A stretch of 64,000 nt of DNA. Source: Patescibacteria group bacterium (lineage in GTDB: Bacteria > Patescibacteriota > SICC01). The notes under the pieces are model-generated. The model made no database searches and had not been told where the DNA came from. It saw nothing but the letters and a program-made list of their open reading frames with translations. The position numbers and the translations under genes were made by a program. The stretch covers positions 499,419 through 563,418 of the forward strand of contig JBBDXB010000006.1 in NCBI GenBank assembly GCA_040902515.1, given 5' to 3'. Position 1 is the stretch's first letter; each line of letters starts with the position of its first letter. This document shows positions 14,833 to 60,550 of this stretch, in pieces.

Positions 14833-14907
14833 GAGGAGGGTGCTGAGCGACATTGGCATTTTGACCATAGCGGGTTACGATGCAGTGTCCTCAAACGCAC
14901 TCTTCTT

Positions 14908-15264: not shown

Positions 15265-15323
15265 CCGGCCGGGTGCGAAGATCGTGAAGGTAAGGATTGA
15301 GGAGAATGAGAGGAAATGACGGT

Positions 15324-15407: not shown

Positions 15408-15467
15408 TTTGACCTCCTTTCTGCCAACATCTTACGTTGGGTTCGTAAGAAGGCAACGTGCCAAAAC

Positions 15468-16207: not shown

Positions 16208-16251
16208 GGATTCAACCTAGCAAGCAAAAATTACTGTGGCAAACTAAACTG

Positions 16252-17250: not shown

Positions 17251-17256
17251 GTGGCC

Positions 17257-18015: not shown

Positions 18016-18049
18016 AAAATCCGCCGGACATAAGCCCGCCGGATTTTTA

Positions 18050-18474: not shown

Positions 18475-18521
18475 GTGCGCGGATTGTACGTCGGTTAGGC
18501 GTGAAAGTCAATGGTCTGAGC

Positions 18522-28424: not shown

Positions 28425-28535
28425 GGTCTGCGGCATGCGGATGCGCCGGACAGGACTGGATCCGTGAAGCCTGTCCGGCTATAAGTCTCAGCATCCGCAG
28501 TTACCGCAGACGCTCAAATCGATAACGCACGAAGG

Positions 28536-29291: not shown

Positions 29292-29357
29292 CCGCACCCG
29301 GCCGATTGCGGCCAGCGGCCGGTCGGGGTAGCATTCGCATCGAACACCGATAGACAT

Positions 29358-30017: not shown

Positions 30018-30053
30018 CGATTCGCCGCCGGGGCACTTCGGTACAATGGTGAG

Positions 30054-32954: not shown

Positions 32955-32960
32955 ATCACC

Positions 32961-33707: not shown

Positions 33708-33758
33708 GCTGGAGGCGAGGGGTTGGCACGGAGCCCCGTGTAACCGTATAGTATACAT

Positions 33759-42467: not shown

Positions 42468-42541
42468 AGGGGTGTAGCTCAGTCCGGCAGAGCACGGGTC
42501 TCCAAAACCCGGTGTCGGGGGTTCGAATCCCTCCACCCCTG
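42468..42541 (+). tRNA. tRNA-Trp (anticodon CCA)
   Basis: Acceptor aggggtg/cacccct, anticodon loop ctCCAaa, encoded CCA follows. Confidence 0.85.
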
Positions 42542-44131
42542 CCAAGAGGTACGAACGGCTTCCAAAGCCTCGTTTCGTTCCTCGGTAGAGATATTTTTCG
42601 CGGTTCTAACCTTGTGATATTCGGCTTCAAGCGCCGGGTACTGTTTTTTGATCGGTTCAAACCATTCGTAGCTTGATAGACGGAATTTTCCGTCCTCAAT
42701 CAACGGGTTCGAACCTAAAGTCATCACGATCTCTTTTTTCTCGTCCGGCGTGCCTTTCTCGAAGCGAACCCGGGCATAGGTGGCGTAGTCGAAGACTTTC
42801 TCCGTAAGCTCGATCCACTTGTCGGCGCGGCTCTCAGTGTCCCGGATTTTCTCTCGAAGGCTCCGTAGCTCGGCCTGAAGTCGCTTCCGATGCGCCGTGA
42901 ACTCTTCGTCATCAATCTGCTGTCGCATGCGCATCCTCGTTAGTTCATCTAGCTCACCCTGAGTGTCCTCAGCCGTCCTGTTCAGGGATGCGTGAGTTTT
43001 CTGTCGATCCGCAATCTCGCGGTCGTTACGGCGGTTCAAACCCTCGATTGCCCACTGCCGAAATTCCGGGGCAATCGTGATACTGCTGAGTTCCTTGTCG
43101 ATTTGCTTCTCAAGCTCAGTGTCCCGCAGGAAAGTACGCTGAGTGCAATCCACGTCTTTCTTCTTGCGGGTGCAATGGTAATAGGTGTACAGGCCAACCT
43201 TTCCGGTTTTCTTTATGATTTTTCGCTTTGTCTCAGCCGTGTAAAGACAACCGCATTCGGCGCAACGGATCAGACCTGTGAACGCGAAAAGATACTTCTG
43301 TGGGCGCGGGCGACCGTCCCGGCCGAGCAGAAGCTGAACCTTATCGTATTCTTCCTTGGTGACCATCGGCTTATGCTTTCCCTCATACCACTGACCGCTC
43401 CCTTTGGGGTACTCGAACTCGCCGTAGTAGAGGGGGTTGGTGAAAATTTTGTAAATCGCGCTCTTGGAGAGCGTCCTGCCGCCAAGCCGCTTCATCTGCC
43501 GTGTGCGAAGCCCCCATTCGTCCGTTGCGACTTTCAGGATGCGTGGTGGCGTATACGCGCCGGTAAGCATCAATTCCCACATCTTTCTGACTAGGGCGTA
43601 CCGCTCCGCGTCGGGCGCTATCGGATCTTCTTCCTCGCCGCCGGTTTTATAGCCGAGCGGCGGTACATGGGGATACCAGCCGCGCTCCGCTTTTCCGCGA
43701 ATGCCACGTATAACGTTCTTGCTAAGGTCGAGAACATATTGGTTAGACATGCCGCTCTCGATATTGAAGAGCAGGACATTGTCATCGGTAAGGTACTCGC
43801 GCTCGTAGGTCAGAATGCTTCGCAGTACTCCCTGTTGAAGTTTCCATTGCAGGTTTGCGCTGTCGATTGGGTTTCGGGAAAGACGGTTAATTTGCCAACA
43901 TAAGATGCCGTCGGCTTCTCCGGCTTCAATCCGTTCAAGCATCTCAGCGAATGCCGGTCGGTTGTTCGGCTTCTTCGCCGATTTCGACTCGGTGAAAACC
44001 TCTTTGACTTTCAACCTTCGCTCAGAGGCAATCTCTTTCAGGCGATTTAATTGATCCTCAATCGACTGCACTTGTCGATCTTCGCTTTCAGAAGACTTGC
44101 GGGCGTAAAGAAAGTAAGTGTTCTGGCTCAT
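42479..44131 (-). CDS. large serine recombinase (integrase of the island); the 3' end reads antisense through tRNA-Trp
   Basis: Resolvase domain YARKSSESEDRQ..S..Q, recombinase domain and a CxxC...C zinc ribbon. Confidence 0.9.
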   Translation of the reverse strand: MSQNTYFLYARKSSESEDRQVQSIEDQLNRLKEIASERRLKVKEVFTESKSAKKPNNRPAFAEMLERIEAGEADGILCWQINRLSRNPIDSANLQWKLQQGVLRSILTYEREYLTDDNVLLFNIESGMSNQYVLDLSKNVIRGIRGKAERGWYPHVPPLGYKTGGEEEDPIAPDAERYALVRKMWELMLTGAYTPPRILKVATDEWGLRTRQMKRLGGRTLSKSAIYKIFTNPLYYGEFEYPKGSGQWYEGKHKPMVTKEEYDKVQLLLGRDGRPRPQKYLFAFTGLIRCAECGCLYTAETKRKIIKKTGKVGLYTYYHCTRKKKDVDCTQRTFLRDTELEKQIDKELSSITIAPEFRQWAIEGLNRRNDREIADRQKTHASLNRTAEDTQGELDELTRMRMRQQIDDEEFTAHRKRLQAELRSLREKIRDTESRADKWIELTEKVFDYATYARVRFEKGTPDEKKEIVMTLGSNPLIEDGKFRLSSYEWFEPIKKQYPALEAEYHKVRTAKNISTEERNEALEAVRTSWQGWRDSNPRHRVLETRALPD

Positions 44132-44475: not shown

Positions 44476-45483
44476 TTACTTAGGGAGGTCAGTTTTACCC
44501 TTTTGGTCAGCACTCTTTCGCGGTAACGAGTAGAAGAGTTTTTTCTTTTCACCGCGCCGTTCGATGATTTCACCACTCTTCACAAGGTCTTTTACTACTT
44601 CGCGCAGTAGCTTGTCTGACGCACTCACATCCGAAGCCCGAACTTTTTCGAACAGCTCTTGTTGGTAGAGGGGATCATCTTGTTCACCGATTAGATCGGG
44701 AATACACTTCTTTGCCTCATTACGGCTGGAAATTGCTTCATCAACCTCTCCGGCAAACTCGAGAGATACGAGCTGGCCGTCAGTGACAATATCGAGACGA
44801 AACGGCTTTGCTTCTGGCTGATGCCGCAGTTTTGTTTGGTGGATAATCAGGTAATCGTCTTTCTTGCGGATTGCTAGGTGGCAATCCACGGCCGCGAGGA
44901 TGTCTGACGAACCACGCATATCTTGGGCAGGGTTAGAACGTCCCGGCCCTTGTTTACGGTTGTGGTGAGTGAAAAGCACGGCGATTCCCGCGGCCTTAAA
45001 CTGACTGAGCAACTTTGCAACGCCCGCCATCTTTCCAGCGTCGTTTTCATCTTCACCGTGGATCCTGACAAGGGAGTCGAAGATCACCAGTCCGATTTCA
45101 AATTCCTTGCATAGTTCCAATAGCTCTTCGACTTTTTTTACCGACAGAGAGAAATTTTGGTATGAACGAAAATAGATTGGCAATTCCGAGTCTGCAGACA
45201 AAGCGGTAAGTCGTTTTTTCAGCAGAGGAGGACCGCTTTCCTCATCCACAATAAGAACTCCGGTCTGATCAGTCGCAAACTTACTGCACAACTGCGACCC
45301 GGAAGCGACGCTCAAAGCCGCCTGTAGTACTAGCCAAGTCTTATACGAAGCTGGCGCCCCAGAAAGTGCAGTGATGCCCGTGGCAGGGATTAGACTTTCG
45401 ACCACCCACTCCACGGGCGGAAACTCCATCCCCATCAAATGGGAGAGCGTGAGAACCGAGAAATTGTCATTTTTGGTTTCCAT
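44476..45483 (-). CDS. RecA-like AAA_25 / RepA-type ATPase (replication/helicase-loader-like)
   Basis: Walker A ALSGAPASYKTW, Walker B GVLIVDE; size and context typical of island primase-associated ATPases. Confidence 0.7.
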   Translation of the reverse strand: METKNDNFSVLTLSHLMGMEFPPVEWVVESLIPATGITALSGAPASYKTWLVLQAALSVASGSQLCSKFATDQTGVLIVDEESGPPLLKKRLTALSADSELPIYFRSYQNFSLSVKKVEELLELCKEFEIGLVIFDSLVRIHGEDENDAGKMAGVAKLLSQFKAAGIAVLFTHHNRKQGPGRSNPAQDMRGSSDILAAVDCHLAIRKKDDYLIIHQTKLRHQPEAKPFRLDIVTDGQLVSLEFAGEVDEAISSRNEAKKCIPDLIGEQDDPLYQQELFEKVRASDVSASDKLLREVVKDLVKSGEIIERRGEKKKLFYSLPRKSADQKGKTDLPK

Positions 45484-45950
45484 TACTGCTCAATTCTTGC
45501 CATGTACACAGCAACGCTGAACGGCATCGCATGGATATTAGTGATGTATGCGATGGTATCGCCACCGATAGCGCATTCACCGCACCAGAAAGTGTTACTG
45601 TCTGGAAACACCTGAAACTCCTTCGTGTGATGAGCGAAAGGGCAGGACGGAACATTTTTTTGAGAACCTTTATCTTTCTCCATATAGATGACATCCCGAA
45701 GAGGAAGGTCTTGGGCGTACTGGATATCACATCTCCATGTATGACCAGTGATGTCGTTGACGAAAGGATTGAATAACAGTTTCAGTCGTGAACGGAGACT
45801 CAGGTATTCGTTCCAGTGGCCGTCGCATGTACACCACCGACTACCCCTAACTTCACAAAGTAGATTTCTTATCACCCAAAACTTCGTTCTTACACATTCG
45901 GTCAGGACGAAAAGAAGAGAGTATTTGATTTGTTTCTTATCTGCCCGCAT
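45483..45950 (-). CDS. CHC2-type (DnaG-like) zinc-finger protein; the conserved part is the C-terminal 65 aa (alternative start at 45680)
   Basis: CPFAHHTKEFQVFPDSNTFWCGECAIGGDTIAYI matches the CHC2 primase zinc-finger pattern CPFH..K.PSF.V.....F.CFGCG.GGD.I. Confidence 0.6.
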   Translation of the reverse strand: MRADKKQIKYSLLFVLTECVRTKFWVIRNLLCEVRGSRWCTCDGHWNEYLSLRSRLKLLFNPFVNDITGHTWRCDIQYAQDLPLRDVIYMEKDKGSQKNVPSCPFAHHTKEFQVFPDSNTFWCGECAIGGDTIAYITNIHAMPFSVAVYMARIEQ

Positions 45951-47724: not shown

Positions 47725-49545
47725 ATGGCTACTGCTACCGCAAAGCGTGAAATCCCAGCCGAAGTAAGGGCGGAAGTACTTGAGCGTGATGAAAACAAGT
47801 GTAGGGAATGCGGATCCAAGCAGGGACTCAACCTGCACCACGTCTTGCCGGAACAGTTTGGTGGCAAAGAGACTCCCGACAATCTGATAACCGTCTGCAA
47901 GCTCCACCACAAAGCGAAACACGTGGAATTCCACATGTTCTATGGAGATAGCCGTAGTGTGGTTGCGCATATGAGGCGCTACGCCGACCAGGTACGTCAG
48001 CTGAGCGGTAACTTCTTCGGGTTGATGGGCGAGGTACGGCTTAAGCCCGTTCTCTACCTGCTGACCGGACAACGGACATTCCGTCCAAGTCAGGAAGAGG
48101 TAATCCGGGACGTGCTGGCGGGGCGTGACGTGTTATTTGTGACCCCGACAGGATCAGGGAAGTCACTTTGCTTTCAATTGCCGGGTCTTTTACTAGACGG
48201 ACAGACCATGGTTATTTCACCCCTGAAGTCTCTGATGAAGGATCAGGTTGAAGGATTGCTCAAACGGAAAGTACCAGCTACCTATATCAACAGTGACCTC
48301 GGTACGCATGAGAAAAACCAGCGGATAAAGTTTGCCTTAGAAGGGTTGTTCCGGTTCCTATATGTAACCCCCGAGCGGTTTTTCCAGCCGCGCCTCAACC
48401 TGAAGAACAGACTTATTCGAAAGTACAAACTGTTGGCGGTAGACGAAGCTCACTGCATCGATCTCTGGGGGCGCAACTTCCGGCCTTCTTACGCGAAGCT
48501 AGGAGAGCTGAAAAAGGCTCTGGGAAGTCCTCCGACCTTGGCGCTCACGGCAACGGCATCGAAACGAGTCCAAAAAGAAATACTTAAATCCCTTGATATG
48601 CCGAACGCGAAGCGTTACGTCACGGGTTTTCACCGCCCGGAGATTGAACTTTATAACCTGCAAATACCGGTCGGCTTCAAAGATGAAAAGACAGGGGACT
48701 TACTCAGAAGCGAAGAAAAAGTCGATGCCGCGAAAGCGGATCTCATCGAGCGGATACTCAAAGCTCCGAAGTACTACAAGCCAAACCCTCGGCGCCGGTG
48801 GCGAATGATAAAACGAGATATTGCTCCTAAGAAATTCGCGTTGGTTAAGGATGCGCTTTCAGAGCATCGAGAGCAGAGGGTTTCTTTCTACCAAACTTTC
48901 TTTCGGAAGTATAAGGGAGAGCTGCGCGCGGCGGTAAAGCTCATCCGGGACAAAAAACTCAAGCGTGGCGTGAGCCGTTTGACCAAGGCTCGCCAGAAAG
49001 TGCTTTGGCAGACGTATCAGATCGTCAATGACGACAAAGTTCTGATATTCGTGCCGACCGTTACCAAGGGAAAGGAATTAAGAAAAGAGCTAGAGAAGCG
49101 GGGCATTGCCATTGATTTCTACCATGGGAAACTGCCGGTTCACGAAAAAACCCAAGTACAAAACCGCTATTCCGGACTGTTTGGCAAGCAAAGCCGGGCG
49201 CTGATTAGCACCTCCGCATTCGGCATGGGAATAGACATTTCAAACATCAGGCGAGTGGTTCACTACTCGGTTACGGCAAGCCTAGAGGATTACTATCAGC
49301 AAATCGGGCGAGCGGGCAGGGATCGCAAGCGGTCTAAAGCGTTTCTGCTCTATGCCCCGGGCGACGAGGAATTAATCCGCTTCATGAACGAAGTTTCCAA
49401 AGAAGACAAGGAGGAACCGCTAACCGCACAGCAACGAGAACGCCTCGTTCAAATCGAAGAAAAAGAGTTGTCGGCAATGCTCGACTATCTCCAGGCGCCC
49501 CATCAATGGCGTCACATCCTCGATTACTTCGGAGAAACCGTTTAG
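47725..49545 (+). CDS. HNH endonuclease fused to a RecQ-family DNA helicase (no RQC/HRDC domains; about 130-aa basic insertion between the RecA lobes)
   Basis: N-terminal CRECGS...LHHVLP...DNLITVC..HH; RecQ motifs TFRPSQEEVIRDVLAGRDVLFVTPTGSGKSLCFQLP, VISPLKSLMKDQVEGL, LLAVDEAHCIDLWGRNFRPSY, AFGMGIDISNIRRVVHY, QQIGRAGRD. Confidence 0.85.
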   Translation: MATATAKREIPAEVRAEVLERDENKCRECGSKQGLNLHHVLPEQFGGKETPDNLITVCKLHHKAKHVEFHMFYGDSRSVVAHMRRYADQVRQLSGNFFGLMGEVRLKPVLYLLTGQRTFRPSQEEVIRDVLAGRDVLFVTPTGSGKSLCFQLPGLLLDGQTMVISPLKSLMKDQVEGLLKRKVPATYINSDLGTHEKNQRIKFALEGLFRFLYVTPERFFQPRLNLKNRLIRKYKLLAVDEAHCIDLWGRNFRPSYAKLGELKKALGSPPTLALTATASKRVQKEILKSLDMPNAKRYVTGFHRPEIELYNLQIPVGFKDEKTGDLLRSEEKVDAAKADLIERILKAPKYYKPNPRRRWRMIKRDIAPKKFALVKDALSEHREQRVSFYQTFFRKYKGELRAAVKLIRDKKLKRGVSRLTKARQKVLWQTYQIVNDDKVLIFVPTVTKGKELRKELEKRGIAIDFYHGKLPVHEKTQVQNRYSGLFGKQSRALISTSAFGMGIDISNIRRVVHYSVTASLEDYYQQIGRAGRDRKRSKAFLLYAPGDEELIRFMNEVSKEDKEEPLTAQQRERLVQIEEKELSAMLDYLQAPHQWRHILDYFGETV

Positions 49546-49602
49546 CGACCTTTTAACTATCGTTGCGCTAAGATTGCTGTATATGCAGATGAAAGCTGAT
49601 GA

Positions 49603-52600
49603 ATGAGTACCGACCAAACATTTCTTACGAATGAGCCGGGAAAACGACTCGTAGACCGGTTCAGGACGCTTATCAACGATACCCGGCTATTTGACTGTCT
49701 GGTCGGGTATTTCTTTGCCAGCGGTTTTCATCAGCTCTACAACTCTTTAGAAAAAACCGAGAAAATCCGCATCTTGATTGGTCTAAAAACTGATCGCACC
49801 GTGAAGAACCTATTTGACGAAGGCCAGATACCGCTCGGCGACTCCCACGCGGAAATCCGAGATGAGGGAGCTAAGCAATTGGCGAAAGAGATGGCTGAGT
49901 CTGACGACAGCCCGGACGTAGAAGCCGGAGCAAAGAAATTCATCGAATGGATACGAAGCGACAAGCTAGAAATCCGCGCTTGCAACGAACGTCTTCACTC
50001 CAAGCTGTACATCATGTCCTTCAAGAAAGGCCACATAGACGAAGGGCGGGTTATCACCGGTTCCAGCAACTTCACTAGTCCCGGACTGAAAGATAACCTT
50101 GAATTCAACGTCGAACTTAAGAACCGCTCTGATTTTGACTATGCCCTGAACAGTTTTAACGAACTATGGGAAAAATCAGTCGATTTGTCGGATCGTTTCG
50201 TGGATACGATGTCGAAAGATACTTGGCTTAACGACAAGATCACCCCATACGAGCTATACCTGAAGTTCCTGTATGAGTATTTCAAGGAACGACTCTCACC
50301 GGAAATCACAGCCGAGGACATTTACCTGCCCGAACGCTTCAAGAAGCTCCAGTATCAGCAAGAGGCCGTTGCTAGCGCGTACAAGATAGTTCGTGAGTAT
50401 GGAGGGGTATTCCTGTCCGATGTGGTCGGCCTCGGCAAGACCTACATGGCGGCGATGCTGGCAAGCCAACTTGAGGGTGGAACTTTGGTAATTGCGCCCC
50501 CATCGCTTCTCGACGAGAACAACCCCGGATCGTGGCCGAATGTATTTCGAGACTTTGGAGTGCGGCGCTTCCGCACGGAGTCGCTCGGAAAACTAGACCA
50601 TTTGCTTACACAAGGGGTCGAGCGGTACAAGAACGTCATCATCGACGAGTCGCACCGTTTCCGCACTGAGGACAACAAGACCTACGAGTCGTTGGCCAAG
50701 ATATGTCGGAACAAAAGAGTCGTGTTAGTTTCTGCGACTCCGCTGAATAACACTCCCAAGGATATCTTTTCCCAGATCAAGCTTTTCCAGCCACCAAGGA
50801 AAAGTGACATCCCGGGTGTCTCGAACCTCGAAGAATTCTTCGGGAGTCTCGACCGGAAAATCAAGAAGATTAAACGTGGAGAAGATTTTGAAGGATACGC
50901 GAAGACGACAAAGGAAAACGCCAAGGAAATCCGCGAAAAGGTACTTCGACATCTAATGATCCGTCGAACCCGCAAAGAGGTGGCTGAGTTCTTCAAAGAC
51001 GATATCGAAAAACAGGGCTTATCCTTTCCGGAAGTGAAGAACCCGAAGGCTGTCTACTACCAGCTCAGCAAGGAAGAAGATCGGATTTTTACGAGAACGC
51101 TGACGCTAATCAAGAACCTTAATTACGCCCGGTACAAGCCGATGCTCTATTACCTCAAGGACATTGGGCAGGCCGAGGAGCAGGCACAGATTAACCTCGT
51201 AAAGTTTATGGAAGTGTTACTGGTTAAACGCCTCGAAAGCAGTTTCTTCGCGTTTCGTCAGACCATTGACCGGTTCGTAGCGACCTATGAAGGTGCCATC
51301 TCGGAGTACGACAACGGCCGTGTCTTTGTGAGCAAGAAGTACGCCAATAAGATTTTCGGGTTACTGGAGTCTGGGGACGAAGACGGTATCCAGCACCTCT
51401 TAGCAACGAAGGATGCGGATGCCTATAAATCTTCTGATTTCAAAAAGACTTTCCGGGAAGACCTAGTGGCCGACTTGAAGGCGCTTCAGGAAATCCAGTC
51501 GATTTGGAAATCCATTAAGCGCGATCCGAAGCTTGAGCAGTTACTAGCAGATCTAAAATCAGAAGACGTTCTAAAAAAGAGCAAACTGATTATTTTCACG
51601 GAGTCAGGGGAGACTGCCGACTATCTGCACAAAGAGATTTCAAAGCATTCTAAGGAAGCCATTAAGTTCTCAGGCTCGTCTAGCGAAGAGCGACGTCGGC
51701 AGGTCATCGATAACTTCGACGCGAACGCACGCAATAAGAGTGATGAATTCAGGTTGCTAATCACTACAGACGTCTTAGCTGAAGGCGTGAACCTTCACCG
51801 CTCTAACGTAGTCCTGAACTACGACATCCCTTGGAACCCAACGCGGATGATGCAACGGGTCGGCCGGATCAATCGTGTAGATACACCCTTCAAAGTCATC
51901 CACTCATACAACTTCTTCCCGACGACTCAAGCAAACACGCAGATTAAGCTGCAAGAAGCGGCTGAGGCGAAGATTATGGCGTTTATCGACATGCTTGGCG
52001 CGGATGCGAAGTTGTTGACCGAGGGAGAGGAAATCAAGTCGCATGACCTCTTCAGCCGCCTGAATTCGAAAGCTACGATTACTGGCGAAGAAGAAGACAC
52101 AGACAGTGAGCTGGCATTCTTCGAAGTGATTAGGAACGTCAGGGACAAAGACTCGAAGCTGTTTGCGAAGATCAAACGGTTGCCGAAGAAGGCTAGGGCG
52201 GGTCGCAAAGCCAAAGACTCACGTCCGGGCTTGGTTACCTACTTCCGCAAAGGAAGGCTTGAAAAGTTTTACCTGTCTTCAAAAGAGATTGATTTCATGG
52301 AAGCTGCCAAAGTGTTTGAGGCTGAACCACAAGAGAAGACAGTTCCGCTAGACAAGGCATATTACTCACTGCTGGATCGGAACAAGGGGGCGTTTACTGC
52401 TGCGACGACCGAGGACGAAGAGGCGGCCAAGGGCAGGGGCGGCCGGGATACGACCACCAAACTCAGGAACATACTTACCTCCAGTGAGATGAGAGGTTAC
52501 GAAGGCTTCTCTGACGAAGATGAAACATTCTTGAATGGTGTCGTCCGAGCGCTAGAAGAGGGCAGCGTACCTGCTCACACGCGCAAAGAGCTTCACAAAG

Positions 52601-52767
52601 CGCTAGAAGCGGAGATTAAGGGTGGAAAAGCCAACCAGACCAGAATTTTGGCACTAACCAGACGGAACTTCCCGGAAGAGTTTCTCGCGTCCAACCGTGA
52701 TACCGGCAATCGTCAAGCGGGCCCGCGCGAAGTAATACTTTCCGAATACTTTGTTCAGAAGAAGTGA
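49603..52767 (+). CDS. PLD-family nuclease domain fused to an SNF2-family (DExH) helicase
   Basis: HSKLYIMSF...GSSNFTSPG (HxK...GSxN) at the N-terminus; SNF2 motifs LSDVVGLGKT, IIDESHRFR, VLVSATPLNN, helicase-C ITTDVLAEGVNLH and MQRVGRINR. Confidence 0.85.
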   Translation: MSTDQTFLTNEPGKRLVDRFRTLINDTRLFDCLVGYFFASGFHQLYNSLEKTEKIRILIGLKTDRTVKNLFDEGQIPLGDSHAEIRDEGAKQLAKEMAESDDSPDVEAGAKKFIEWIRSDKLEIRACNERLHSKLYIMSFKKGHIDEGRVITGSSNFTSPGLKDNLEFNVELKNRSDFDYALNSFNELWEKSVDLSDRFVDTMSKDTWLNDKITPYELYLKFLYEYFKERLSPEITAEDIYLPERFKKLQYQQEAVASAYKIVREYGGVFLSDVVGLGKTYMAAMLASQLEGGTLVIAPPSLLDENNPGSWPNVFRDFGVRRFRTESLGKLDHLLTQGVERYKNVIIDESHRFRTEDNKTYESLAKICRNKRVVLVSATPLNNTPKDIFSQIKLFQPPRKSDIPGVSNLEEFFGSLDRKIKKIKRGEDFEGYAKTTKENAKEIREKVLRHLMIRRTRKEVAEFFKDDIEKQGLSFPEVKNPKAVYYQLSKEEDRIFTRTLTLIKNLNYARYKPMLYYLKDIGQAEEQAQINLVKFMEVLLVKRLESSFFAFRQTIDRFVATYEGAISEYDNGRVFVSKKYANKIFGLLESGDEDGIQHLLATKDADAYKSSDFKKTFREDLVADLKALQEIQSIWKSIKRDPKLEQLLADLKSEDVLKKSKLIIFTESGETADYLHKEISKHSKEAIKFSGSSSEERRRQVIDNFDANARNKSDEFRLLITTDVLAEGVNLHRSNVVLNYDIPWNPTRMMQRVGRINRVDTPFKVIHSYNFFPTTQANTQIKLQEAAEAKIMAFIDMLGADAKLLTEGEEIKSHDLFSRLNSKATITGEEEDTDSELAFFEVIRNVRDKDSKLFAKIKRLPKKARAGRKAKDSRPGLVTYFRKGRLEKFYLSSKEIDFMEAAKVFEAEPQEKTVPLDKAYYSLLDRNKGAFTAATTEDEEAAKGRGGRDTTTKLRNILTSSEMRGYEGFSDEDETFLNGVVRALEEGSVPAHTRKELHKALEAEIKGGKANQTRILALTRRNFPEEFLASNRDTGNRQAGPREVILSEYFVQKK

Positions 52768-52768
52768 T

Positions 52769-55700
52769 ATGCAGAATACAGAAGCTACGAAGCTGGTAAA
52801 CGAAGTTCTCGGCAGCCCCTTTGATCGGGGCGGTTTTGGTTCATTAGCCAAGAATATCTTGAAGAAACTCGATGACCGAAGTGAAAACAGTACATTTTCG
52901 TATTCCGGGAACCTCATTCCAGACGCGTTCAAAGGTCATGTGAGCAAGTACGAGCGGCTGGGTAAGTACCAAGACCCCAGCAGTAAGCACCACACCGTTG
53001 ATGTGCTAATAGTTCACTTGGCAAAAACCGACGCCCTAGATCGGGCAAGGACGATGCAAAGGAACTTTATTGCCCGGTATCTAAATGGTAGTCGCGGCGG
53101 GCAACAAAAGGATGCGGCGCTAGTTGCGTTCGTAGCTCCAAATAGAAACGACTGGCGATTTTCTCTGGTACGAATGGATTACAAAGACTTCGGAACGAAG
53201 AAAGAACTTTCACCTGCACGCAGGTACTCATTCCTTGTGGGGCAGGATGAGCAAACTCATACAGCGAGAACGCAACTCGTAGACATTCTGACTTCTGACG
53301 AACTGCCGGATATAGAAGTACTCACATCGGCGTTCAATGTAGAAAAGGTAGGACAGGAATTCTTTGAAAGGTACAAAGAATTATTCCTTCAACTGAAGGA
53401 AGCCCTTGATGGAATGATTGAGTCAGACAAGTCCATTGCCCGGGACTTCAGCTCGAAAGAAGTGAGATCTGAAGATTTCGCAAAGAAACTACTGGGTCAA
53501 GTGGTCTTTTTATACTTTCTTCAGAAGAAAGGATGGTTAGGGGTTCCCAAAGAGAAAACTTGGGGCGAGGGGCCAAAGGATTTCCTTCGAAGACTGTATT
53601 TAGGGAAATACGGCGAATACAGTAACTTCTTTAACGATGTCCTTGAGCCTCTCTTTTATGAAGCACTATCCACGGAACGGAGTAAGCACTATTACGACCG
53701 ATTGAAATCAAAAATTCCTTTTCTCAATGGCGGATTATTTGAGCCAATCGACGATTACGATTGGGTAGATACCGACGTTTTGATACCCGACAAATTATTC
53801 TCTAATTCAGATAATGCAGACTTAGGTACTGGCATTTTGGATGTTTTTGATAGGTACAACTTCACAGTCAAAGAGGATGAACCACTTGATAAAGAAGTAG
53901 CGGTTGATCCCGAGATGCTGGGAAAAGTATTTGAAAACTTATTGGATGTCAGAGATCGTCGGTCGAAGGGTTCCTACTACACCCCTAGAGAAATCGTCCA
54001 TTACATGTGTCAGGCATCACTGCTTAATTACTTGGACTCCCGCATCGACGGGAAAATCTCTAGATCCGATTTAGAGTCTTTCTTAAGGACTTCCGACATG
54101 GTGGTAGAACATGACTCGCTCATTCAGAAAAGGGGAAAAGAAACCTCGGCATACCAATATAAATTGCCAGAAAATGTTAGGGCGTACGCAGATAAGATAG
54201 ATAGCCTTTTGTCTGAGGTGCGGGTCTGCGATCCGGCTATAGGCTCAGGCGCTTATCCGGTAGGGATGATGCATGAGATAGTTCGTGCCAGACAAGTTCT
54301 TGCAATATTCAGCAGCAAACCCTTTTCTGCGTATCAGCTCAAGCTAGACGTCATCCAAAACTCCTTATTTGGTGTTAATATTGACTCCGGAGCCGTTGAG
54401 ATTGCGAAACTCAGACTTTGGCTTTCACTTGTGGTCGATGAAAATTCTACGGACGAAATTGACCCACTCCCCAACCTTGATTACAGGATTATGCAGGGGA
54501 ACAGCCTCGTCGAAGATTTTGGAGAAATTGAACTATTCGACGCAGAAGTCCTAAAAGATGAGTCGTCGCGTGAGGGAAAGAAACTTGCAGTTCGTAACCT
54601 CAAAAAACAGGTTGAGACTCTGGAGAAAGAGTACCTCTCGCTTCATAAATCTTCTCAACTTACGGACGCACGCAAGAAAGCCATCAACAAGGAAATACGA
54701 AGAACACGTCGAAGGTTGAAATTATTAGCCGGCAGCAAAACAGATGACCGCCTCAGTCTGTTCTCGGACAAGGGTGAAGTTGATTACAAACAGGTTCTTC
54801 GAGAACTCTTTGAAAAGTTTTTTGATGCTTCTCATAAGAAAGAAAAAGATCAGCTTAGAAGTAATATAGAAGAAATCCAATGGCACTTAATTGAGTCTTC
54901 GTTAGTCAAAGAGGGTAAGGCAGACAAAATTGATGAGATTGAAGATTTACGCTCCAAAAAACAGAGACCTTTTTTCATTTGGCATTTGTACTTTCTAGAG
55001 GTTTTCGAAGAAAAAGGTGGCTTCGATATCGTCCTTGGCAATCCGCCGTACTTAGAGTCGCGACACCCCAACTTCAGCGAGTCAATGAAGGATGACGTAC
55101 AGCGTGCCGCCCATAAGAGGTGGCCGCAAGACGCCGATAAAATCACAAGGGGATCGGACTTACTTGTTTACTTTTTTGAACTTGGTCTTTCATTAGTAAA
55201 CAAAAGTGGGCAGGTCATCCTTTTGACACAAAACTCTTGGCTCGACACAGAATACGGAAAGAAGTTTCAAGAGTTCTTACTGAAGCATTCGAAGGTAGAG
55301 TCGATTATCGATAGCGATTTCAAACACTTTGATAGTCGCCTAGGACCCAACATTAATACAATCATCACAACTCTCCGATCGGGCGGTAACGAGAAGTCGA
55401 ACACCTATCTTGCAAAGTTTCACGAGAACTATTCTGATATGCCGCTTACGCTCTCAAGCAAACTGGGTAAATTAGCGACTATCAAGAATTTAACTTCGGA
55501 TAGTGGCCTGTTACAGAAGTACAAATGGGGATTTATTCTTTCGAGTAATCAAATATTGCTTGAAGCCGTAGATGCACTGAGTAAGAGCGGGCAATTCTTA
55601 TCCGAGCTAGATGGTATCTCGGTTGGGCAAGGGTTAAACGTGTCAAAATCTTCTATTTACGAGAAAAGCCTCTTAAAGAAGTTTCCCTTCGTAAAGAAAG

Positions 55701-56329
55701 CGACCGTACCTATCGCAACCAGTGCGGATAAGCCAAAGTTCGAAATAACTTCTGTCGAGTGCTTCTTAGTAGACTCAACTCGATTGTCGGAGGAAGAACG
55801 TGAAAAGTTAAAAAAAGCTGAGATTAATTTGTATACTTCGTCTTCAACGTCTAAGGATTATCCAACCATGTCGTTGCCTCGTGGCCTGAGTGATAAACAC
55901 TACTGCACCGTCCATGAAATAAAGACTCATACGGCAAGCGCTGTTGATCTTTATTCGGAGAAAGATTTTGGGAAAGATCTTCGACTACTGAACATCTGGG
56001 CAGTATTAAATTCGACATTAGGTTGGCTCATAAGAGAGACATCTGGAAGAAAGAATTTGGGCGGGGGAATGCTCAAGGCAGAGGCAGTAGACTTGAAAGC
56101 TTTTCCTCTGTATCTCGATCTGAAAAAAGACAAACAGATCAGCAAGATCTTTACGAAGACAAAAGGGCGGCTGGTGAAATCCGTGTTCGAAGAAATGAAA
56201 ACTGAAGAGCATAAAGCCATAGATAGGATTGTGTTCGACCACCTTTCGATACTCCCAAAAAATAGAAAAGGTTTGATTGATCTTACGCTTGAAACAGTTA
56301 GGGATAGGTATGCCAAATCCAAAACCTAG
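52769..56329 (+). CDS. gamma-class N6-adenine DNA methyltransferase of the MmeI/Eco57I/PglX/DrmMI lineage (about 1186 aa) with a long N-terminal domain and C-terminal putative target-recognition region
   Basis: Motif X YYTPREIV, motif I VCDPAIGSGAYP (nt about 54230), FFIWHLYFLEVF hinge, motif IV VLGNPPY (55040-55051), LNGGLFEP motif; the ATG at 52769 is 2 nt after the upstream stop (the track TTG at 52751 overlaps). Confidence 0.85.
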   Translation: MQNTEATKLVNEVLGSPFDRGGFGSLAKNILKKLDDRSENSTFSYSGNLIPDAFKGHVSKYERLGKYQDPSSKHHTVDVLIVHLAKTDALDRARTMQRNFIARYLNGSRGGQQKDAALVAFVAPNRNDWRFSLVRMDYKDFGTKKELSPARRYSFLVGQDEQTHTARTQLVDILTSDELPDIEVLTSAFNVEKVGQEFFERYKELFLQLKEALDGMIESDKSIARDFSSKEVRSEDFAKKLLGQVVFLYFLQKKGWLGVPKEKTWGEGPKDFLRRLYLGKYGEYSNFFNDVLEPLFYEALSTERSKHYYDRLKSKIPFLNGGLFEPIDDYDWVDTDVLIPDKLFSNSDNADLGTGILDVFDRYNFTVKEDEPLDKEVAVDPEMLGKVFENLLDVRDRRSKGSYYTPREIVHYMCQASLLNYLDSRIDGKISRSDLESFLRTSDMVVEHDSLIQKRGKETSAYQYKLPENVRAYADKIDSLLSEVRVCDPAIGSGAYPVGMMHEIVRARQVLAIFSSKPFSAYQLKLDVIQNSLFGVNIDSGAVEIAKLRLWLSLVVDENSTDEIDPLPNLDYRIMQGNSLVEDFGEIELFDAEVLKDESSREGKKLAVRNLKKQVETLEKEYLSLHKSSQLTDARKKAINKEIRRTRRRLKLLAGSKTDDRLSLFSDKGEVDYKQVLRELFEKFFDASHKKEKDQLRSNIEEIQWHLIESSLVKEGKADKIDEIEDLRSKKQRPFFIWHLYFLEVFEEKGGFDIVLGNPPYLESRHPNFSESMKDDVQRAAHKRWPQDADKITRGSDLLVYFFELGLSLVNKSGQVILLTQNSWLDTEYGKKFQEFLLKHSKVESIIDSDFKHFDSRLGPNINTIITTLRSGGNEKSNTYLAKFHENYSDMPLTLSSKLGKLATIKNLTSDSGLLQKYKWGFILSSNQILLEAVDALSKSGQFLSELDGISVGQGLNVSKSSIYEKSLLKKFPFVKKATVPIATSADKPKFEITSVECFLVDSTRLSEEEREKLKKAEINLYTSSSTSKDYPTMSLPRGLSDKHYCTVHEIKTHTASAVDLYSEKDFGKDLRLLNIWAVLNSTLGWLIRETSGRKNLGGGMLKAEAVDLKAFPLYLDLKKDKQISKIFTKTKGRLVKSVFEEMKTEEHKAIDRIVFDHLSILPKNRKGLIDLTLETVRDRYAKSKT

Positions 56330-57101
56330 TCCGAAGAAAGGATACACACGCACGCGCAATGTGTTCGACCCTGAGTCAGCTGATACGTATAAACTGTCTA
56401 GATCAAAGCTTGAGAACTTCATACGATGTCCTCGTTGTTTCTATCTTGATCGCCGACTCGGAGTAGGACAGCCGCAAGGCCCGCCGTTTCTACTGAACTC
56501 AGCGGTGGACGAGCTGCTGAAAAAGGAATTCGACCGACATCGGAAAGCTCAGACCAAGCACAAGATTTGCGAGCAATTCGGGGTGGACGCGATCCCACTC
56601 AATCACGAGAAGCTCGATATTTGGAGACACAACTTCGCCGGGCTGGAAACACTACATAAGCCAACGAACTTATTGATTTTCGGGGCGGTGGACGACATCT
56701 GGGTCAACCCGGCCGGGGAGTGGATTGTGGTCGACTATAAGGCCACCTCAAAGCGTGCTGAGATCACACTGGATACCAAGTGGGGCAAAGGCTACAAGAG
56801 ACAGTTAGAGATTTACCAGTGGATATTGAAGCAAAACGGCGAGCCCGTCTCGGAGACCGCATACATCCTGTACTGCAATAACATTCTTGATCGGGAAGAC
56901 TTCGATAATCGCCTCGATTTTGAGGTAAGCATGTTCAAGCACGAAGGCGATACCTCGTGGGTCGAGCCGAAGATTATCGAGGCTCATAAGGCTCTAGTTT
57001 CTGGTCAAATCCCCTCGCCAGCCGAAGACTGCGAGTATTGTGCTTACCGAGAAGCCGCGAGATTAAAGGAAGTCGATGTCACCAAAGAAATCAATCAGTG
57101 A
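56310..57101 (+). CDS. Cas4/RecB-like PD-(D/E)xK nuclease with N- and C-terminal CxxC pairs (putative Fe-S)
   Basis: IRCPRCFY...GAVDDIWVNPAGEWIVVDYKATSK (D, ExK)...RQLEIYQWIL...YILYC...EDCEYCAY; the ATG overlaps the MTase stop. Confidence 0.75.
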   Translation: MPNPKPSPKKGYTRTRNVFDPESADTYKLSRSKLENFIRCPRCFYLDRRLGVGQPQGPPFLLNSAVDELLKKEFDRHRKAQTKHKICEQFGVDAIPLNHEKLDIWRHNFAGLETLHKPTNLLIFGAVDDIWVNPAGEWIVVDYKATSKRAEITLDTKWGKGYKRQLEIYQWILKQNGEPVSETAYILYCNNILDREDFDNRLDFEVSMFKHEGDTSWVEPKIIEAHKALVSGQIPSPAEDCEYCAYREAARLKEVDVTKEINQ

Positions 57102-58008
57102 CCTCTCGGGCGAACTGAGGGAAGTAATCAATAGCAGTATTTCCCTGCGCAATCAGGTGTACCAACAGAAAGCAAAGGGAGCGTGGGATCGGCTTTGGGC
57201 TTCAATGGATGCGCTTGACGATGCACAACTCGCAATCGAGAAGTTCCAAAAAGCGTCCTCAATATCATATCTGGAGTTATACGGACTCCTGCAAGCTTTC
57301 ATTGTTCAACAGGATAGCGTTAATCACATACGGCAGACGACCCTTAATGCACCTCTGATTAAATGGGATAAAGCAGAGCCGAAACTTAATCAGATACGGT
57401 ATTTGAGAAACGAAACAGTTGGTCACCCGACTGACATTCGAACAGGCAAGACGATAGTCTACTGCAATATAAACCGCAGGTCGGTATCTAAAACGAGCTT
57501 CGAGTACATGATTTGGAGTCAGGCCGGAGCGCAACACAAAACCGTCGATGTGACTGATGTAATCAAAACGCAAGATGTCGAAGTCGCGCGCCTAATTAGG
57601 AAAATCATCGCTGACATTAAAGCGCATGAAGTTAGGTTTAAGAAGCAGTTTTCGGGAAAAAAATTGAAAACCGACTACTCGCAGATTAGTCACTACGAGT
57701 TCGAAAAACTTTATCTGTACCAAAACAACCCTGAAATTGCACAGATTATGTTCGGTTTAATAAAAAAGAAGTATGCAGAACTCCGGACTGAACTGGCAAA
57801 ACGCTACGGCGACTTTAGCACCACTATTAACGTCGGAGGTCTCAAAATTGTAATCGACGAACTGGACGAACTTGTTAAACGGGTTGGGACAAAATTGAAC
57901 GAAGGTGTCCCTGACGCCTTTGATTTCAATGTTTATGTCGAAAACCTAGATAGTAAATGGAAAGAACTGGGCGAAATGATCGATGAAACAGACGAGAAGT
58001 TTAGCTGA
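57076..58008 (+). CDS. hypothetical helical protein (310 aa) with a possible HEPN-like Rx5H motif (YLRNETVGH)
   Basis: ORF overlaps the previous stop by 26 nt; the motif match is weak. Confidence 0.55.
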   Translation: MSPKKSISDLSGELREVINSSISLRNQVYQQKAKGAWDRLWASMDALDDAQLAIEKFQKASSISYLELYGLLQAFIVQQDSVNHIRQTTLNAPLIKWDKAEPKLNQIRYLRNETVGHPTDIRTGKTIVYCNINRRSVSKTSFEYMIWSQAGAQHKTVDVTDVIKTQDVEVARLIRKIIADIKAHEVRFKKQFSGKKLKTDYSQISHYEFEKLYLYQNNPEIAQIMFGLIKKKYAELRTELAKRYGDFSTTINVGGLKIVIDELDELVKRVGTKLNEGVPDAFDFNVYVENLDSKWKELGEMIDETDEKFS

Positions 58009-58072
58009 TTATGGATTCATGCAAGGCGCGGAGTCATGGCTGCGGACTTAACGAAGGGGTAACCTTATAGCA

Positions 58073-59908
58073 ATGCGGGAAATTCATGGTGACGCAAAAA
58101 CCGTTCGGGACCTACTCAAAGGGGTTAAGTACTCCATTGACTACTACCAGCGTGAGTACAAGTGGGGCGGGAAACAGCTTCGCGAGCTTATCGATGACCT
58201 GAGTGGTAAGTTTTTGGAAGTCCACAAACCGGGCAACGACCGCAAGAAAGTTTCCGAATACCCCCACTACTTTCTCGGTTCGATCATCATCAGCAAAAAA
58301 GAGAGTGCGAATTATGTCGTGGACGGTCAGCAGCGTCTAACGACGTTGACCCTTCTCCTGATTTACCTAAGAAACCTCCAACGCGAGCGTGACGATAAGG
58401 TTTCGATTGACGAATTGGTCGCTTCCGAAACCTACGGCGAACAGTCATTCAACATCGAGGTAGACGAACGCATCCCGGTAATGGACGCGTTGTTTAGCAA
58501 TAAATCATTTGATGCGACTGACCGATCAGAGTCAGTACAGAACATCCTTAAAAGGTACGAGGAACTCGATGACGCTTTTCCCGAAGAACTGCGCGAAGAC
58601 GCGCTTCCGTATTTCATAGACTGGCTTCAGCAGAATGTTCATTTTGTGGAAATTACCGCGTATTCCGACGACGACGCCTACACGATTTTCGAAACGATGA
58701 ACGATCGCGGCCTTTCCCTGTCCCCGACGGACATGTTGAAAGGTTATTTGCTCGCGAATGTAGACAGATCCAAGCGTAATACCGCAAATGATTTTTGGCG
58801 CAAACGCATGAGCGAGTTAACCGATGTGGGTAAGGAAGCTGAGGCAGATTTCTTCAAGGCATGGTTGAGGAGCCAATACGCAACCAAGATCCGCGAGCGA
58901 AAACGGGGTGCTACTCCCGAGGACTTTGACCGGATTGGTACCGAGTTCCACCGGTGGTTGAGAGATGCCAGCAAGAAAATCGGCTTGGAACAAGACGACG
59001 ATTTCTATCAATTGATTGACCGGAACCTCAACTTCTACAGCCGACAGTATCTCGAATTGATGCGGGCGTCCCGGGAGCCAGTTGAGGGACTAGAACATGT
59101 ACTTTATAACGCCCACCATGGGTTCACCCTTCAATACATGTTGTTGTTAGCCCCGCTCACTCCAGACGACACTGACGAAGTAGCTCGGCAAAAACAGCGA
59201 CTAGTTGGGCAGTTCGTGGACATACTGATTACTCGAAGAATTTGGAATTTCCGATCCATCTCATATTCAACAATGCAGTACGCCATGTTCCTTGTTATGC
59301 GGAGCATACGAGGTCTCGAGCCCGACCAACTTGGGGAGACGTTAAAAAAGGCGCTTGGTGAGCAGGACGAGACTTTCTCAACCCAAGAAGACCTTTACCT
59401 ACATCAACAGAACCGGAGGGCTCTGCATCGGGTTCTGGCGCGCCTTGCTGACAGCGTAGAGGTTGGCTCGGGGCAACCGACGCAGTATATGAATTTTGTC
59501 AGTGACACCGGAAAAGACAGGTTCGAAGTAGAGCATATTTGGGCCGACAAATACGATCGGCATAAGGAAGCGTTTGCACACCCCAAAGACTTTGCAGATT
59601 ATCGTAATCGCATCGGCGGTCTCTTGCTCTTGCCAAAGAGTTTCAATGCTAGCTACGGTGATTTGGCATACGAGAAGAAACTCCCTCACTATCTGACTCA
59701 AAACCTACTTGCCCGGTCGCTGCACCCGCAGTGCTATGAGCGCAATCCTGGCTTTATAAAATTCGTGAAAGAAACCGGGTTGCCGTTCCGGGCTCACGAA
59801 AAATTTACGAAGGAAGATCTCGACGCGCGAGGAGCCCTCTATCGACAGCTTGCAGAATACGTATGGAACCCCAATAAGCTGATAGGTGATGACGTTAGCG
59901 GATCTTAA
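58073..59908 (+). CDS. GmrSD-family type IV restriction enzyme (DUF262 ParB-like NTPase plus DUF1524 His-Me nuclease)
   Basis: DYYQREYKW and VVDGQQRLTTL (DGQQR) in the N-terminal half; FEVEHIWAD...N..N in the C-terminal half. Confidence 0.8.
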   Translation: MREIHGDAKTVRDLLKGVKYSIDYYQREYKWGGKQLRELIDDLSGKFLEVHKPGNDRKKVSEYPHYFLGSIIISKKESANYVVDGQQRLTTLTLLLIYLRNLQRERDDKVSIDELVASETYGEQSFNIEVDERIPVMDALFSNKSFDATDRSESVQNILKRYEELDDAFPEELREDALPYFIDWLQQNVHFVEITAYSDDDAYTIFETMNDRGLSLSPTDMLKGYLLANVDRSKRNTANDFWRKRMSELTDVGKEAEADFFKAWLRSQYATKIRERKRGATPEDFDRIGTEFHRWLRDASKKIGLEQDDDFYQLIDRNLNFYSRQYLELMRASREPVEGLEHVLYNAHHGFTLQYMLLLAPLTPDDTDEVARQKQRLVGQFVDILITRRIWNFRSISYSTMQYAMFLVMRSIRGLEPDQLGETLKKALGEQDETFSTQEDLYLHQQNRRALHRVLARLADSVEVGSGQPTQYMNFVSDTGKDRFEVEHIWADKYDRHKEAFAHPKDFADYRNRIGGLLLLPKSFNASYGDLAYEKKLPHYLTQNLLARSLHPQCYERNPGFIKFVKETGLPFRAHEKFTKEDLDARGALYRQLAEYVWNPNKLIGDDVSGS

Positions 59909-60182
59909 GAGACGCCTTCGTCAAACGAAGTTCCGGTTCGCAAAAACCTATAGCGATACGTACCCCCACGAGTACCTGGTCAAAGAATTGGATGCTGCCC
60001 TCTTTGATGAAATGGCGAAGTTGATTGACGGGAAGGGCTACAAATCCGACTTCCACGGTCAGGAACATACGTACCTAGAGCTTGATGGTTACAAGTACTG
60101 GCACTATGAAACTATCCTTAACAGGGAGCCCCTGAAGGGGTACAAGGATGTAGAGAAGGAGTTAAATGCATCTGACCGATGA
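59889..60182 (+). CDS. hypothetical protein (97 aa)
   Basis: ORF overlapping the GmrSD stop. Confidence 0.45.
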   Translation: MTLADLKRRLRQTKFRFAKTYSDTYPHEYLVKELDAALFDEMAKLIDGKGYKSDFHGQEHTYLELDGYKYWHYETILNREPLKGYKDVEKELNASDR

Positions 60183-60423
60183 AGACATAGACGGGTTCCG
60201 CCGTATCTATAAGAAGCGGTTTGGCGAAGACATAAGCCGGGAAGAAGCACGGGAGGAGGGATCAAGCCTGCTTCGTCTGATGAAAGTCGTCTACAAACCA
60301 GTCACGCAGGAGCAGGTGGATAGCCTCCGTGAGCGCGATATGAAGCGAGTGGACGAAGCCTACGACTTTATCTTCGCAAAGGCTTTGAAAGAGAAGAAGA
60401 GTGAGTCAAATGCTGACGATTGA
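60166..60423 (+). CDS. small conserved protein (85 aa), paralog of 44269..44460
   Basis: See 44269..44460. Confidence 0.5.
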   Translation: MHLTDEDIDGFRRIYKKRFGEDISREEAREEGSSLLRLMKVVYKPVTQEQVDSLRERDMKRVDEAYDFIFAKALKEKKSESNADD

Positions 60424-60550
60424 AGAATGTCGGAAACACCTCCGGGACGACCGGGATCTCACCGACGAACAGGTTCTCGAGCTTCGAGATGCTCTCTATC
60501 ACCTGATTGAAACTGTTTGGGACGAGAAGCTTGGAGACAAGTCTGACTGA
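60410..60550 (+). CDS. 46-aa ORF (MLTIEECRKHLRDDRDLTDEQVLELRDALYHLIETVWDEKLGDKSD) overlapping the previous stop
   Basis: Hand-translated; below the track cutoff; a fourth consecutive overlapping start in the operon. Confidence 0.25.
   Translation: MLTIEECRKHLRDDRDLTDEQVLELRDALYHLIETVWDEKLGDKSD

Follow-up and report, generated by a model that had tools for sequence, protein, structure and literature searches.

Do the nine genes that follow one another on the forward strand of a mobile island in a Patescibacteria group bacterium make up one defence system, or did they arrive there as separate modules? These genes, numbered P1 to P9 in their order, occupy positions 47725–60550 of the window, that is to say, of the 64,000-nucleotide (nt) stretch of contig JBBDXB010000006.1 (assembly GCA_040902515.1, positions 499,419 to 563,418) analysed here. 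They encode an HNH-RecQ helicase (P1), a PLD-SNF2 protein (P2), an N6-adenine DNA methyltransferase (MTase; P3), a Cas4-like nuclease (P4), a protein of an uncharacterised family (P5), a GmrSD-family enzyme (P6) and three small proteins (P7–P9). The initial annotation had proposed that all nine, or at least P1 to P4, constitute a new defence system. Comparative genomics revealed that only P2 and P3 co-occur elsewhere, and the single nine-gene system is therefore rejected. Because only these two genes co-occur, and because related elements carry different restriction–modification (R-M) systems, the region is better described as mosaic cargo of a mobile element. We consider it likely that an integrative element of the serine-recombinase type carries the region at its cargo end, where independent modules are assembled and only P2 and P3, which would act together as a two-gene R-M cassette, are co-inherited.

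The comparison set consisted of 85 fetched loci (83 distinct, designated by L numbers), which were screened with all nine proteins of the window; the loci were fetched with the MTase and the best 80 matches were kept, so that the set is not a random sample. P2 lay directly upstream of P3 in 76 of the 77 loci with enough upstream flank, the exception being L023, and the junction between the 2 genes was overlapping or no longer than 30 nt in 39 of the 64 loci with a full-length P2. None of the 83 distinct loci contained P1, P5, P6, P7, P8 or P9. P4 was found in 5 of them (L014, L019, L029, L044, and L049), where it is located 1.5–5 kb downstream of the pair with unrelated genes in between, and was absent from the other 78. 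The initial annotation had named in advance, as an observation that would speak against one system, that homologues of its genes do not co-occur elsewhere; this was the finding for 7 of the 9 genes.

Clustering of the 728 neighbouring open reading frames (ORFs) of the 83 loci did not reveal a third gene conserved alongside the pair. The most frequent neighbour family, an SLFN_AlbA_2 + HATPase_c_4 protein of approximately 440 residues, occurred in 11 loci only; its gene was inserted between P2 and P3 in 10 of the 83 loci (for example, L046:850–2175, L013, L024, L027, and L052), and a RhuM-family gene occupies the same slot between the PLD-SNF2 and MTase genes in L049. The other neighbours encode RhuM, AAA_15/21 with DUF4276, OLD-family, KAP NTPase and MORC-like ATPase proteins. 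These neighbours are ordinary defence-island passengers. In the minimal island of L004, an integrase, a DUF6161 protein, P2 and P3 are all that stands between housekeeping genes.

The pair is also very widespread. At least 8000 strong homologues of P3 came up in the protein search, and a P3 profile built from 35 homologues confirmed at least 593 loci in the species-representative genomes of GTDB, spanning many bacterial phyla as well as DPANN and other archaea. More distant, plasmid-borne versions show the same pairing, annotated as "helicase-related / SNF2-related protein" and "DNA methyltransferase / N-6 DNA methylase".

The domain composition of the 2 proteins is consistent with an R-M cassette. 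Domain searches were run with Pfam, PADLOC and NCBIfam on all nine proteins, and with PHROGs on P5 and P7–P9. P2 is an N-terminal PLD nuclease domain with a single HKD motif, fused to an SNF2-type superfamily 2 (SF2) ATPase; its PLDc_2 score is 38.9 bits (cut-off 27), and the SNF2-rel_dom and Helicase_C scores exceed their cut-offs as well. Across 60 family members, the residues of the PLD motif HxK(x)4D...GSxN (H132, K134, and GSSN153–156) and those of the ATPase motifs (GLGKT276–280, D348-E349-x-H351, and Q751/R752/G754/R755/R758) are 100% conserved, that is to say, the protein carries both the signature of PLD/HKD nucleases and the Walker A, DExH and motif VI signatures of SNF2/SF2 ATPases. 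We predict that P2 is the restriction subunit of the cassette.

P3 is an MTase of the PglX/MmeI class. In 35 sequences, motif I (DPAxGSG; D488, A490, and G492–A495) and the catalytic motif IV that follows it (NPPY758–761) are invariant, which is the order of motifs of gamma-class N6-adenine MTases. Residues 1–600 and 750–850 are conserved, whereas residues 600–750, a variable helical insert, and residues 850–1186 are not; the variability of the last approximately 340 residues is that expected of a target-recognition domain (TRD). The AlphaFold2 (AF2) model of P3 (mean predicted local distance difference test score, pLDDT, 82.9) matched the BREX protein BrxX/PglX (PDB 9ewz) best and over its full length, followed by CamA, BpuSI, MmeI, and DrdV. 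At the sequence level, the matches of P2 and P3 among PDB chains were limited to generic SNF2 cores and fragments of CamA. P3 is the predicted modification and specificity subunit.

The genes around the pair have different histories, as can be seen in related serine-recombinase elements that carry other R-M systems (identities are to the proteins of the window). Element L088 has a serine recombinase (43%), a P1 copy (55%), a divergent XRE gene in the same position beside it (73%), and a P4 homologue (75%); between its RecQ and P4 genes, on the opposite strand, lie a ResIII helicase and an N6_N4 methylase, a Type III-like system. Element L092 (recombinase 51%, P4 85%) carries 2 C5 methylases, an N6_Mtase/Type_ISP_C protein and a Vsr protein, a Type ISP-like plus C5-MTase combination, the last gene of which is overlapped by P4 by 4 nt. 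Element L093 (recombinase 34%, P4 84%) carries HsdR and an HsdM-S fusion, a Type I-like system, again followed by P4 with a 4-nt overlap. Together with L094, in which the gap between the R-M system and the P4 relative is 6 nt, copies of P4 are thus found directly 3' of 4 kinds of R-M system (L088:15069–15857, L092:8557–9327, L093:6224–6976, and L094:6001–6753). R-M cassettes have been swapped between related serine-recombinase elements that keep P4. Further P1 homologues (L089, L090, and L091) sit among ordinary genes. From this distribution, P1 and the XRE gene appear to be backbone genes of the element, and P1 does not appear to be a partner of the R-M pair. The retention of both P1 and P4 beside other R-M types speaks against the earlier view of them as partners in one system with P2 and P3.

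P4 is the only flanking gene for which a closer tie to the cassette has to be weighed. The protein matches the motif pattern of Cas4/RecB-like nucleases, with 4 cluster cysteines, D...(D/E)xK and QxxxY, all invariant in 28 sequences (C40, C43, C241, C244, D128, D129, D142, K144, Q165, and Y169), and is predicted to bind an iron–sulfur cluster. Its score against the CRISPR family TIGR00372 (cas4) was 34.6 bits, below the cut-off of 65; P4 is therefore Cas4-like but not a CRISPR Cas4. The family, of approximately 250 residues, has at least 7998 homologues at E ≤ 1e-10, most of those among the 120 top matches listed being 55–60% identical; the homologues with a named organism are from Patescibacteria, and relatives occur in DPANN. 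Hudaiberdiev et al. (2017) described "solo-Cas4" genes as over-represented in Candidate Phyla Radiation (CPR) and DPANN genomes, reported their vertical inheritance, found them beside R-M genes in several DPANN genomes, and suggested an uncharacterised role in defence; the retention of P4 behind swapped R-M cassettes is not described there. On our reading, P4 is such a solo-Cas4, spread through the CPR/DPANN lineages as a whole and taken along by this family of elements.

The best surviving alternative, which we nevertheless regard as unlikely, is that P2, P3 and P4 form a three-gene unit, in which the nuclease is a small-genome accessory of whatever R-M system lies upstream in CPR and DPANN cells and would, for example, act on restricted DNA, processing or degrading it, where RecBCD/AddAB is missing. 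The 20-nt overlap of P4 with P3, the close placement of P4 relatives behind other R-M systems, and the association of solo-Cas4 with R-M genes in DPANN (Hudaiberdiev et al. 2017) all fit such a unit, but compact genomes often have overlapping genes, and in the loci with both P4 and the pair the nuclease gene stands well apart. We also took 35 metagenome P4 loci with enough flank and the 3 genes upstream of each (102 proteins, in which 141 Pfam families were found). R-M domains were present upstream of P4 in approximately 6 of the 35, whereas approximately 29 had unrelated housekeeping neighbours. A strict partnership of P4 with R-M systems is weakened by this sample, and the high conservation of P4 and its reported vertical inheritance fit a housekeeping role better.

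A different arrangement of the same observations, to which we give slightly less credence still, is a family of serine-recombinase elements in Patescibacteria with a dedicated "R-M slot", bordered by the solo-Cas4-like nuclease downstream and, in some elements, by XRE and HNH-RecQ genes upstream. The flanking enzymes would then be generic processors for any cassette, unwinding and degrading restricted DNA in cells without RecBCD, and the PLD-SNF2 and MTase pair would be one interchangeable front end, itself an autonomous, uncharacterised type of ATP-dependent R-M system widespread in Bacteria and Archaea.

It is improbable that P3 is a self-contained Type IIG R-M enzyme and P2 an unrelated neighbour, for example, a SauUSI-like helicase-nuclease acting on modified DNA. 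The PADLOC model REase_MTase_IIG does match P3 over its full length with 668 bits, and the PLD-SF2 architecture of P2 does resemble SauUSI. However, such independence is at odds with the near-constant adjacency of P2 and P3, with overlapping or near-zero spacers, in Bacteria and Archaea alike, and no SRA-type or other modified-base reader was detected in P2 by Pfam. Moreover, D78 is the one acidic residue that is nearly invariant in the N-terminal 160 residues of P3 among 35 homologues, and neither a (D/E)xK nor a PD-(D/E)xK triad is conserved there, which makes a nuclease supplied in trans plausible. REBASE formerly filed PglX proteins under Type IIG but now classes them as MTases, and the "Type IIG" label of P3 probably reflects the same historical mis-filing.

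The proposal of one new multi-enzyme defence system, made of all nine genes or of the HNH-RecQ, PLD-SNF2, MTase and Cas4-like proteins, is scarcely credible: the common strand, the 6 tight junctions and the divergent XRE regulator upstream would suit it, but 6 of the genes never accompany the pair, P1 homologues occur next to a different R-M system or in the midst of ordinary genes, a P5 homologue is found on its own, P2 and P3 suffice for the minimal island L004, and GmrSD proteins are a known family of autonomous enzymes.

Several observations weigh against the two-gene cassette in a mosaic as we read it. First, the tight overlaps of P3/P4/P5 and of P6–P9 would allow co-translation, and P4 may thus be functionally coupled to the cassette; P4 relatives also follow other R-M systems directly, and in 5 of the 5 additional loci that have both, the P4 relative is downstream of the pair on the same strand. 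Second, the full-length match of P3 to the Type IIG model means that intrinsic nuclease activity of P3 is possible. Third, the assignment of HNH-RecQ and XRE to the backbone comes from one related element, L088, and P4 retention from 3 (L088, L092, and L093), all of them short metagenomic contigs. Fourth, the comparison set was chosen through the MTase.

How might the two-gene cassette work? The variable C-terminal region of P3 would read a short asymmetric motif, at which P3 would methylate the host DNA. On unmodified sites, P3 would recruit, load or license a dimer of P2, which would translocate along double-stranded DNA with ATP and cut foreign DNA. With its single HKD motif, P2 would have to pair with a second copy to complete one HKD active site; dimerisation likewise forms one PLD site in BfiI, SauUSI and the MANTIS effector MtsD, the last being a dimeric PLD-SF2 effector that acts downstream of an MTase and resembles SauUSI. 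What we infer by this scheme are methylation of a specific motif, hemimethylation, an interaction between P3 and P2, cleavage that depends on ATP, and whatever role P4 may have.

All nine ORFs, whose starts and stops were read directly, are present on the forward strand in the order first described (Table 1), and a separate gene caller, applied to a Logan contig of identical sequence, gave the same products (1186, 263, 310, 611, 97, 85, and 46 residues for P3–P9). The initial annotation had counted 7 tight junctions out of 8; we measured 6. A scan for consensus promoters and terminators gave counts at or below the expectation from shuffled sequence and therefore says nothing about a single transcript; the modules are probably co-transcribed. 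That genes of a mobile element are closely packed on one strand is no evidence for a single system. The GC content within the region is itself mosaic, 0.435 in P3 and P5 and approximately 0.50 in the neighbouring genes. A 44-nt direct repeat (73% identical) links the 3' part of P2 (52448–52491) to P7 (60044–60087), and is probably due to chance.

Table 1. Genes of the region, junctions between them, and genes of the host element (window coordinates).
Feature	Position	Strand	Basis or spacing
P1, HNH nuclease fused to RecQ-family helicase	47725..49545	+	Pfam HNH, DEAD, Helicase_C
P2, N-terminal single-HKD PLD nuclease fused to SNF2-type SF2 ATPase	49603..52767	+	Pfam PLDc_2, SNF2-rel_dom, Helicase_C
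P3, PglX/MmeI-class gamma N6-adenine DNA MTase with variable C-terminal target-recognition region	52769..56329	+	Pfam Eco57I, MmeI_Mtase, N6_Mtase
P4, four-cysteine Cas4/RecB-like PD-(D/E)xK nuclease of the CPR/DPANN "solo-Cas4" kind	56310..57101	+	Pfam PDDEXK_1 (53 bits), PADLOC Cas4
P5, 310-residue protein of uncharacterised family with RNxxxGHP (Rx5H, HEPN-type) motif	57076..58008	+	motif conservation
P6, GmrSD-family (DUF262/DUF1524) enzyme, 611 residues	58073..59908	+	Pfam GmrSD_N 120 bits, GmrSD_C 36 bits, both above cut-off
P7, P8, P9, small overlapping ORFs, 97/85/46 residues	59889..60550	+	also called on Logan contig
P1/P2 junction	stop 49545, ATG 49603		57-nt spacer
P2/P3 junction	stop 52767, ATG 52769		1-nt spacer
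P3/P4 junction	56329 / 56310		20-nt overlap
P4/P5 junction	57101 / 57076		26-nt overlap
P5/P6 junction	58008 / 58073		64-nt spacer
P6/P7 junction	59908 / 59889		20-nt overlap
P7/P8 junction	60182 / 60166		17-nt overlap
P8/P9 junction	60423 / 60410		14-nt overlap
Large serine recombinase of integrative element	42479..44131	-	Pfam Resolvase + Recombinase + Zn_ribbon_recom
Element replication genes: AAA_25 (RepA/DnaB-like) ATPase and CHC2 primase zinc-finger protein	44476..45950	-	Pfam; PHROG primase/helicase families
XRE-family helix-turn-helix regulator, divergent from P1	47441..47686	-	Pfam HTH_3

The first domain assignments for P1, P2, P3, P4 and P6 were borne out by Pfam, PADLOC and NCBIfam; for P1, for example, the NCBIfam recQ_fam score is 309 bits (cut-off 219.8). 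The "HEPN-like" assignment of P5 comes down to the motif R111-x5-H117. P5 had no match in the Pfam, PADLOC, NCBIfam or PHROG libraries; its family of approximately 310 residues has 1030 cluster representatives, in which R111, G116, H117, and P118 are invariant. The AF2 model (pLDDT 95.4) consists of helical bundles, for which structure searches returned only generic four-helix-bundle matches and Foldseek no match in the PDB. Its closest homologue with genomic context (51% identical) stands alone among housekeeping genes, and P5 is probably an independent single-gene module. P6, whose best PADLOC match is HEC-06, is by its domains a candidate Type IV restriction enzyme for modified DNA and a separate system; P5 and P6 are accordingly listed as separate single-gene defence candidates.

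P7–P9 are small ORFs of the element, with no family match in Pfam, PADLOC, NCBIfam or PHROGs. P8-like ORFs (40% identical, E 1e-12 and 2e-9) lie beside the recombinase in L092 (1693–1866) and in the replication-gene cluster near the recombinase in L088 (5513–5662), that is, in the backbone of both elements, so P8 probably belongs to the element and not to defence. No relatives of P5 or P7 were found in viral contigs. Just 3' of the small ORFs, and still in low-GC DNA, an ORF at 61181–62011 encodes an RNase H-domain protein of 276 residues with a weak DUF6678 match.

The island has a GC content of approximately 0.43–0.55, against approximately 0.66 in the rest of the window. The low-GC stretch starts at a tRNA cluster and the large serine recombinase, followed by the AAA_25 ATPase, the primase zinc-finger protein and the divergent XRE gene. 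The 3' end of the recombinase ORF overlaps tRNA-Trp (42468–42544), which stands beside a tRNA-Thr/Tyr/Thr cluster, by approximately 66 nt, and is likely the attachment (att) site of the element. No att direct repeats were found within the 64-kb window and none downstream that match the tRNA-Trp site; the right border of the island lies beyond the window, and the sole other contig found (Logan) stops approximately 300 nt past a LysE gene. The defence-island setting claimed at the outset is thus borne out, as a mobile island, on the left side, by the tRNA cluster, recombinase, replication genes and XRE gene.

Elsewhere in the window, a second low-GC island (GC 0.44–0.55) extends from 12000 to 18500 and ends at a transfer-messenger RNA (tmRNA) gene (18050–18474, minus strand). 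It contains an S-adenosylmethionine-dependent methyltransferase, an EamA transporter and 5 ORFs without a Pfam match, and is probably another element integrated at the classic tmRNA site. In the high-GC part, an ORF of 1886 residues without a Pfam match (28488–34148, minus strand) is overlapped by a plus-strand ORF of 966 residues. The host part of the window has a GC content of approximately 0.66, and identical proteins come from a metagenome-assembled genome (MAG) labelled "Patescibacteria group bacterium". A GC content of approximately 0.66 is high for Patescibacteria, and the binning of the MAG or its label may be questionable.

What the locus adds is a pair of genes that annotation tools show merely as a "Type IIG" enzyme or as an "N-6 DNA methylase" beside a "helicase-related protein". 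The swappable cassette, a PLD-SNF2 protein with a PglX/MmeI-class N6-adenine methylase and its variable TRD, combines in the simplest way components that recur across DISARM class 1, MANTIS/Hma and Type ISP systems, and could for that reason serve as a minimal model for the licensing of a translocating PLD nuclease by an MTase-TRD. That CPR elements exchange R-M cassettes ahead of a conserved solo-Cas4 provides a concrete starting point for explaining what solo-Cas4 does in prokaryotes with small genomes. To specialists nothing here is deeply surprising; the pair is widespread and minimal. Milman et al. (2023) mention the adjacency of the pair in passing; the searchable literature, in which subscription journals are thinly covered so that an earlier description is possible, yielded no name for it and no experiment on it.

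Membership in canonical DISARM, BREX or MANTIS/Hma systems was considered and rejected, since their defining partners are absent: no DUF1998, PglZ, BrxC/PglY, BrxL, BrxA, BrxB, DUF499 or DUF3780 match was found in the nine proteins by Pfam, PADLOC or NCBIfam, in agreement with the initial annotation as regards DISARM and BREX. P3 shares its overall fold and domain order with BREX PglX/BrxX and with the Type IIG/IIL enzymes MmeI, BpuSI, DrdV, and Eco57I. Unlike in BREX, its partner is a helicase-nuclease, and its NCBIfam PglX scores are at most 75 bits, against cut-offs of 400–900; unlike Type IIG/IIL enzymes, it lacks a conserved nuclease motif in its N-terminal domain.

The PLD, SNF2 and Eco57I-like adenine MTase parts are counterparts of DrmC, DrmD and DrmMI of DISARM class 1, a likeness that had been pointed out from the start and holds at the level of domains. 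P2 matches DrmD models, with an NCBIfam DrmD score of 128 bits that is far under the cut-off of 610, and P3 scores 96 bits against PADLOC DrmMI, compared with 668 for the Type IIG model. By contrast with DISARM, PLD and SNF2 are fused in P2, and DrmA and DrmB are missing, the sole similarity to DrmA being 63 bits on the generic SF2 core of P2.

In MANTIS (MtsABCD; also Gao_RL / Gao_29 or "Type-2 BREX-related"), a large N6-adenine MTase directs both modification and restriction, and the DUF499 AAA+ ATPase MtsA and the DUF3780 protein MtsB are needed for MTase loading. The window pair shares with it the large N6-adenine MTase and the PLD(HKD)-SF2 helicase-nuclease, which in MANTIS has one PLD site per dimer, and P2 gives weak scores with the related HmaA model and with PADLOC PLD_Helicase, 83 and 76 bits, respectively. 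The pair differs in that neither MtsA/HmaC nor MtsB has a counterpart among the nine proteins and in that the 83 loci have no conserved third gene.

SauUSI shares the N-terminal PLD and SF2 ATPase layout of P2; it has an SRA-type reader and targets modified DNA, whereas P2 has no detected reader and is paired with an MTase. P4 resembles solo-Cas4 in being a four-cysteine Cas4/RecB-like nuclease outside CRISPR loci that is abundant in Patescibacteria and at times stands beside R-M genes; it differs in that it matches PDDEXK_1 instead of the core Cas4 family PF01930 and in that the copy described here is island-borne.

The closest comparison in the arrangement of parts is with the Type ISP enzymes LlaGI and LlaBIII, in which a single polypeptide contains an Mrr-like nuclease, an SF2 translocase, a gamma MTase and a TRD. 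Enzymes of this type translocate with ATP and cut between unmodified sites that face each other head-to-head. P2 and P3 present the same parts in the same order, and the initial comparison with a split Type ISP enzyme stands in this respect. The differences are that the parts are distributed over 2 polypeptides, that the nuclease is PLD and not Mrr-like PD-QxK, and that the motor is SNF2-type; the likeness seen here is one of functional parts. By analogy, ATP-dependent translocation from asymmetric sites would be expected of the pair. P2 and P3 together may therefore be viewed as a Type ISP-like ATP-dependent R-M enzyme split over 2 polypeptides, with a PLD nuclease in place of Mrr, or equivalently as the "MTase + helicase-nuclease" module of MANTIS or DISARM class 1 without the AAA+ or DrmAB layer.

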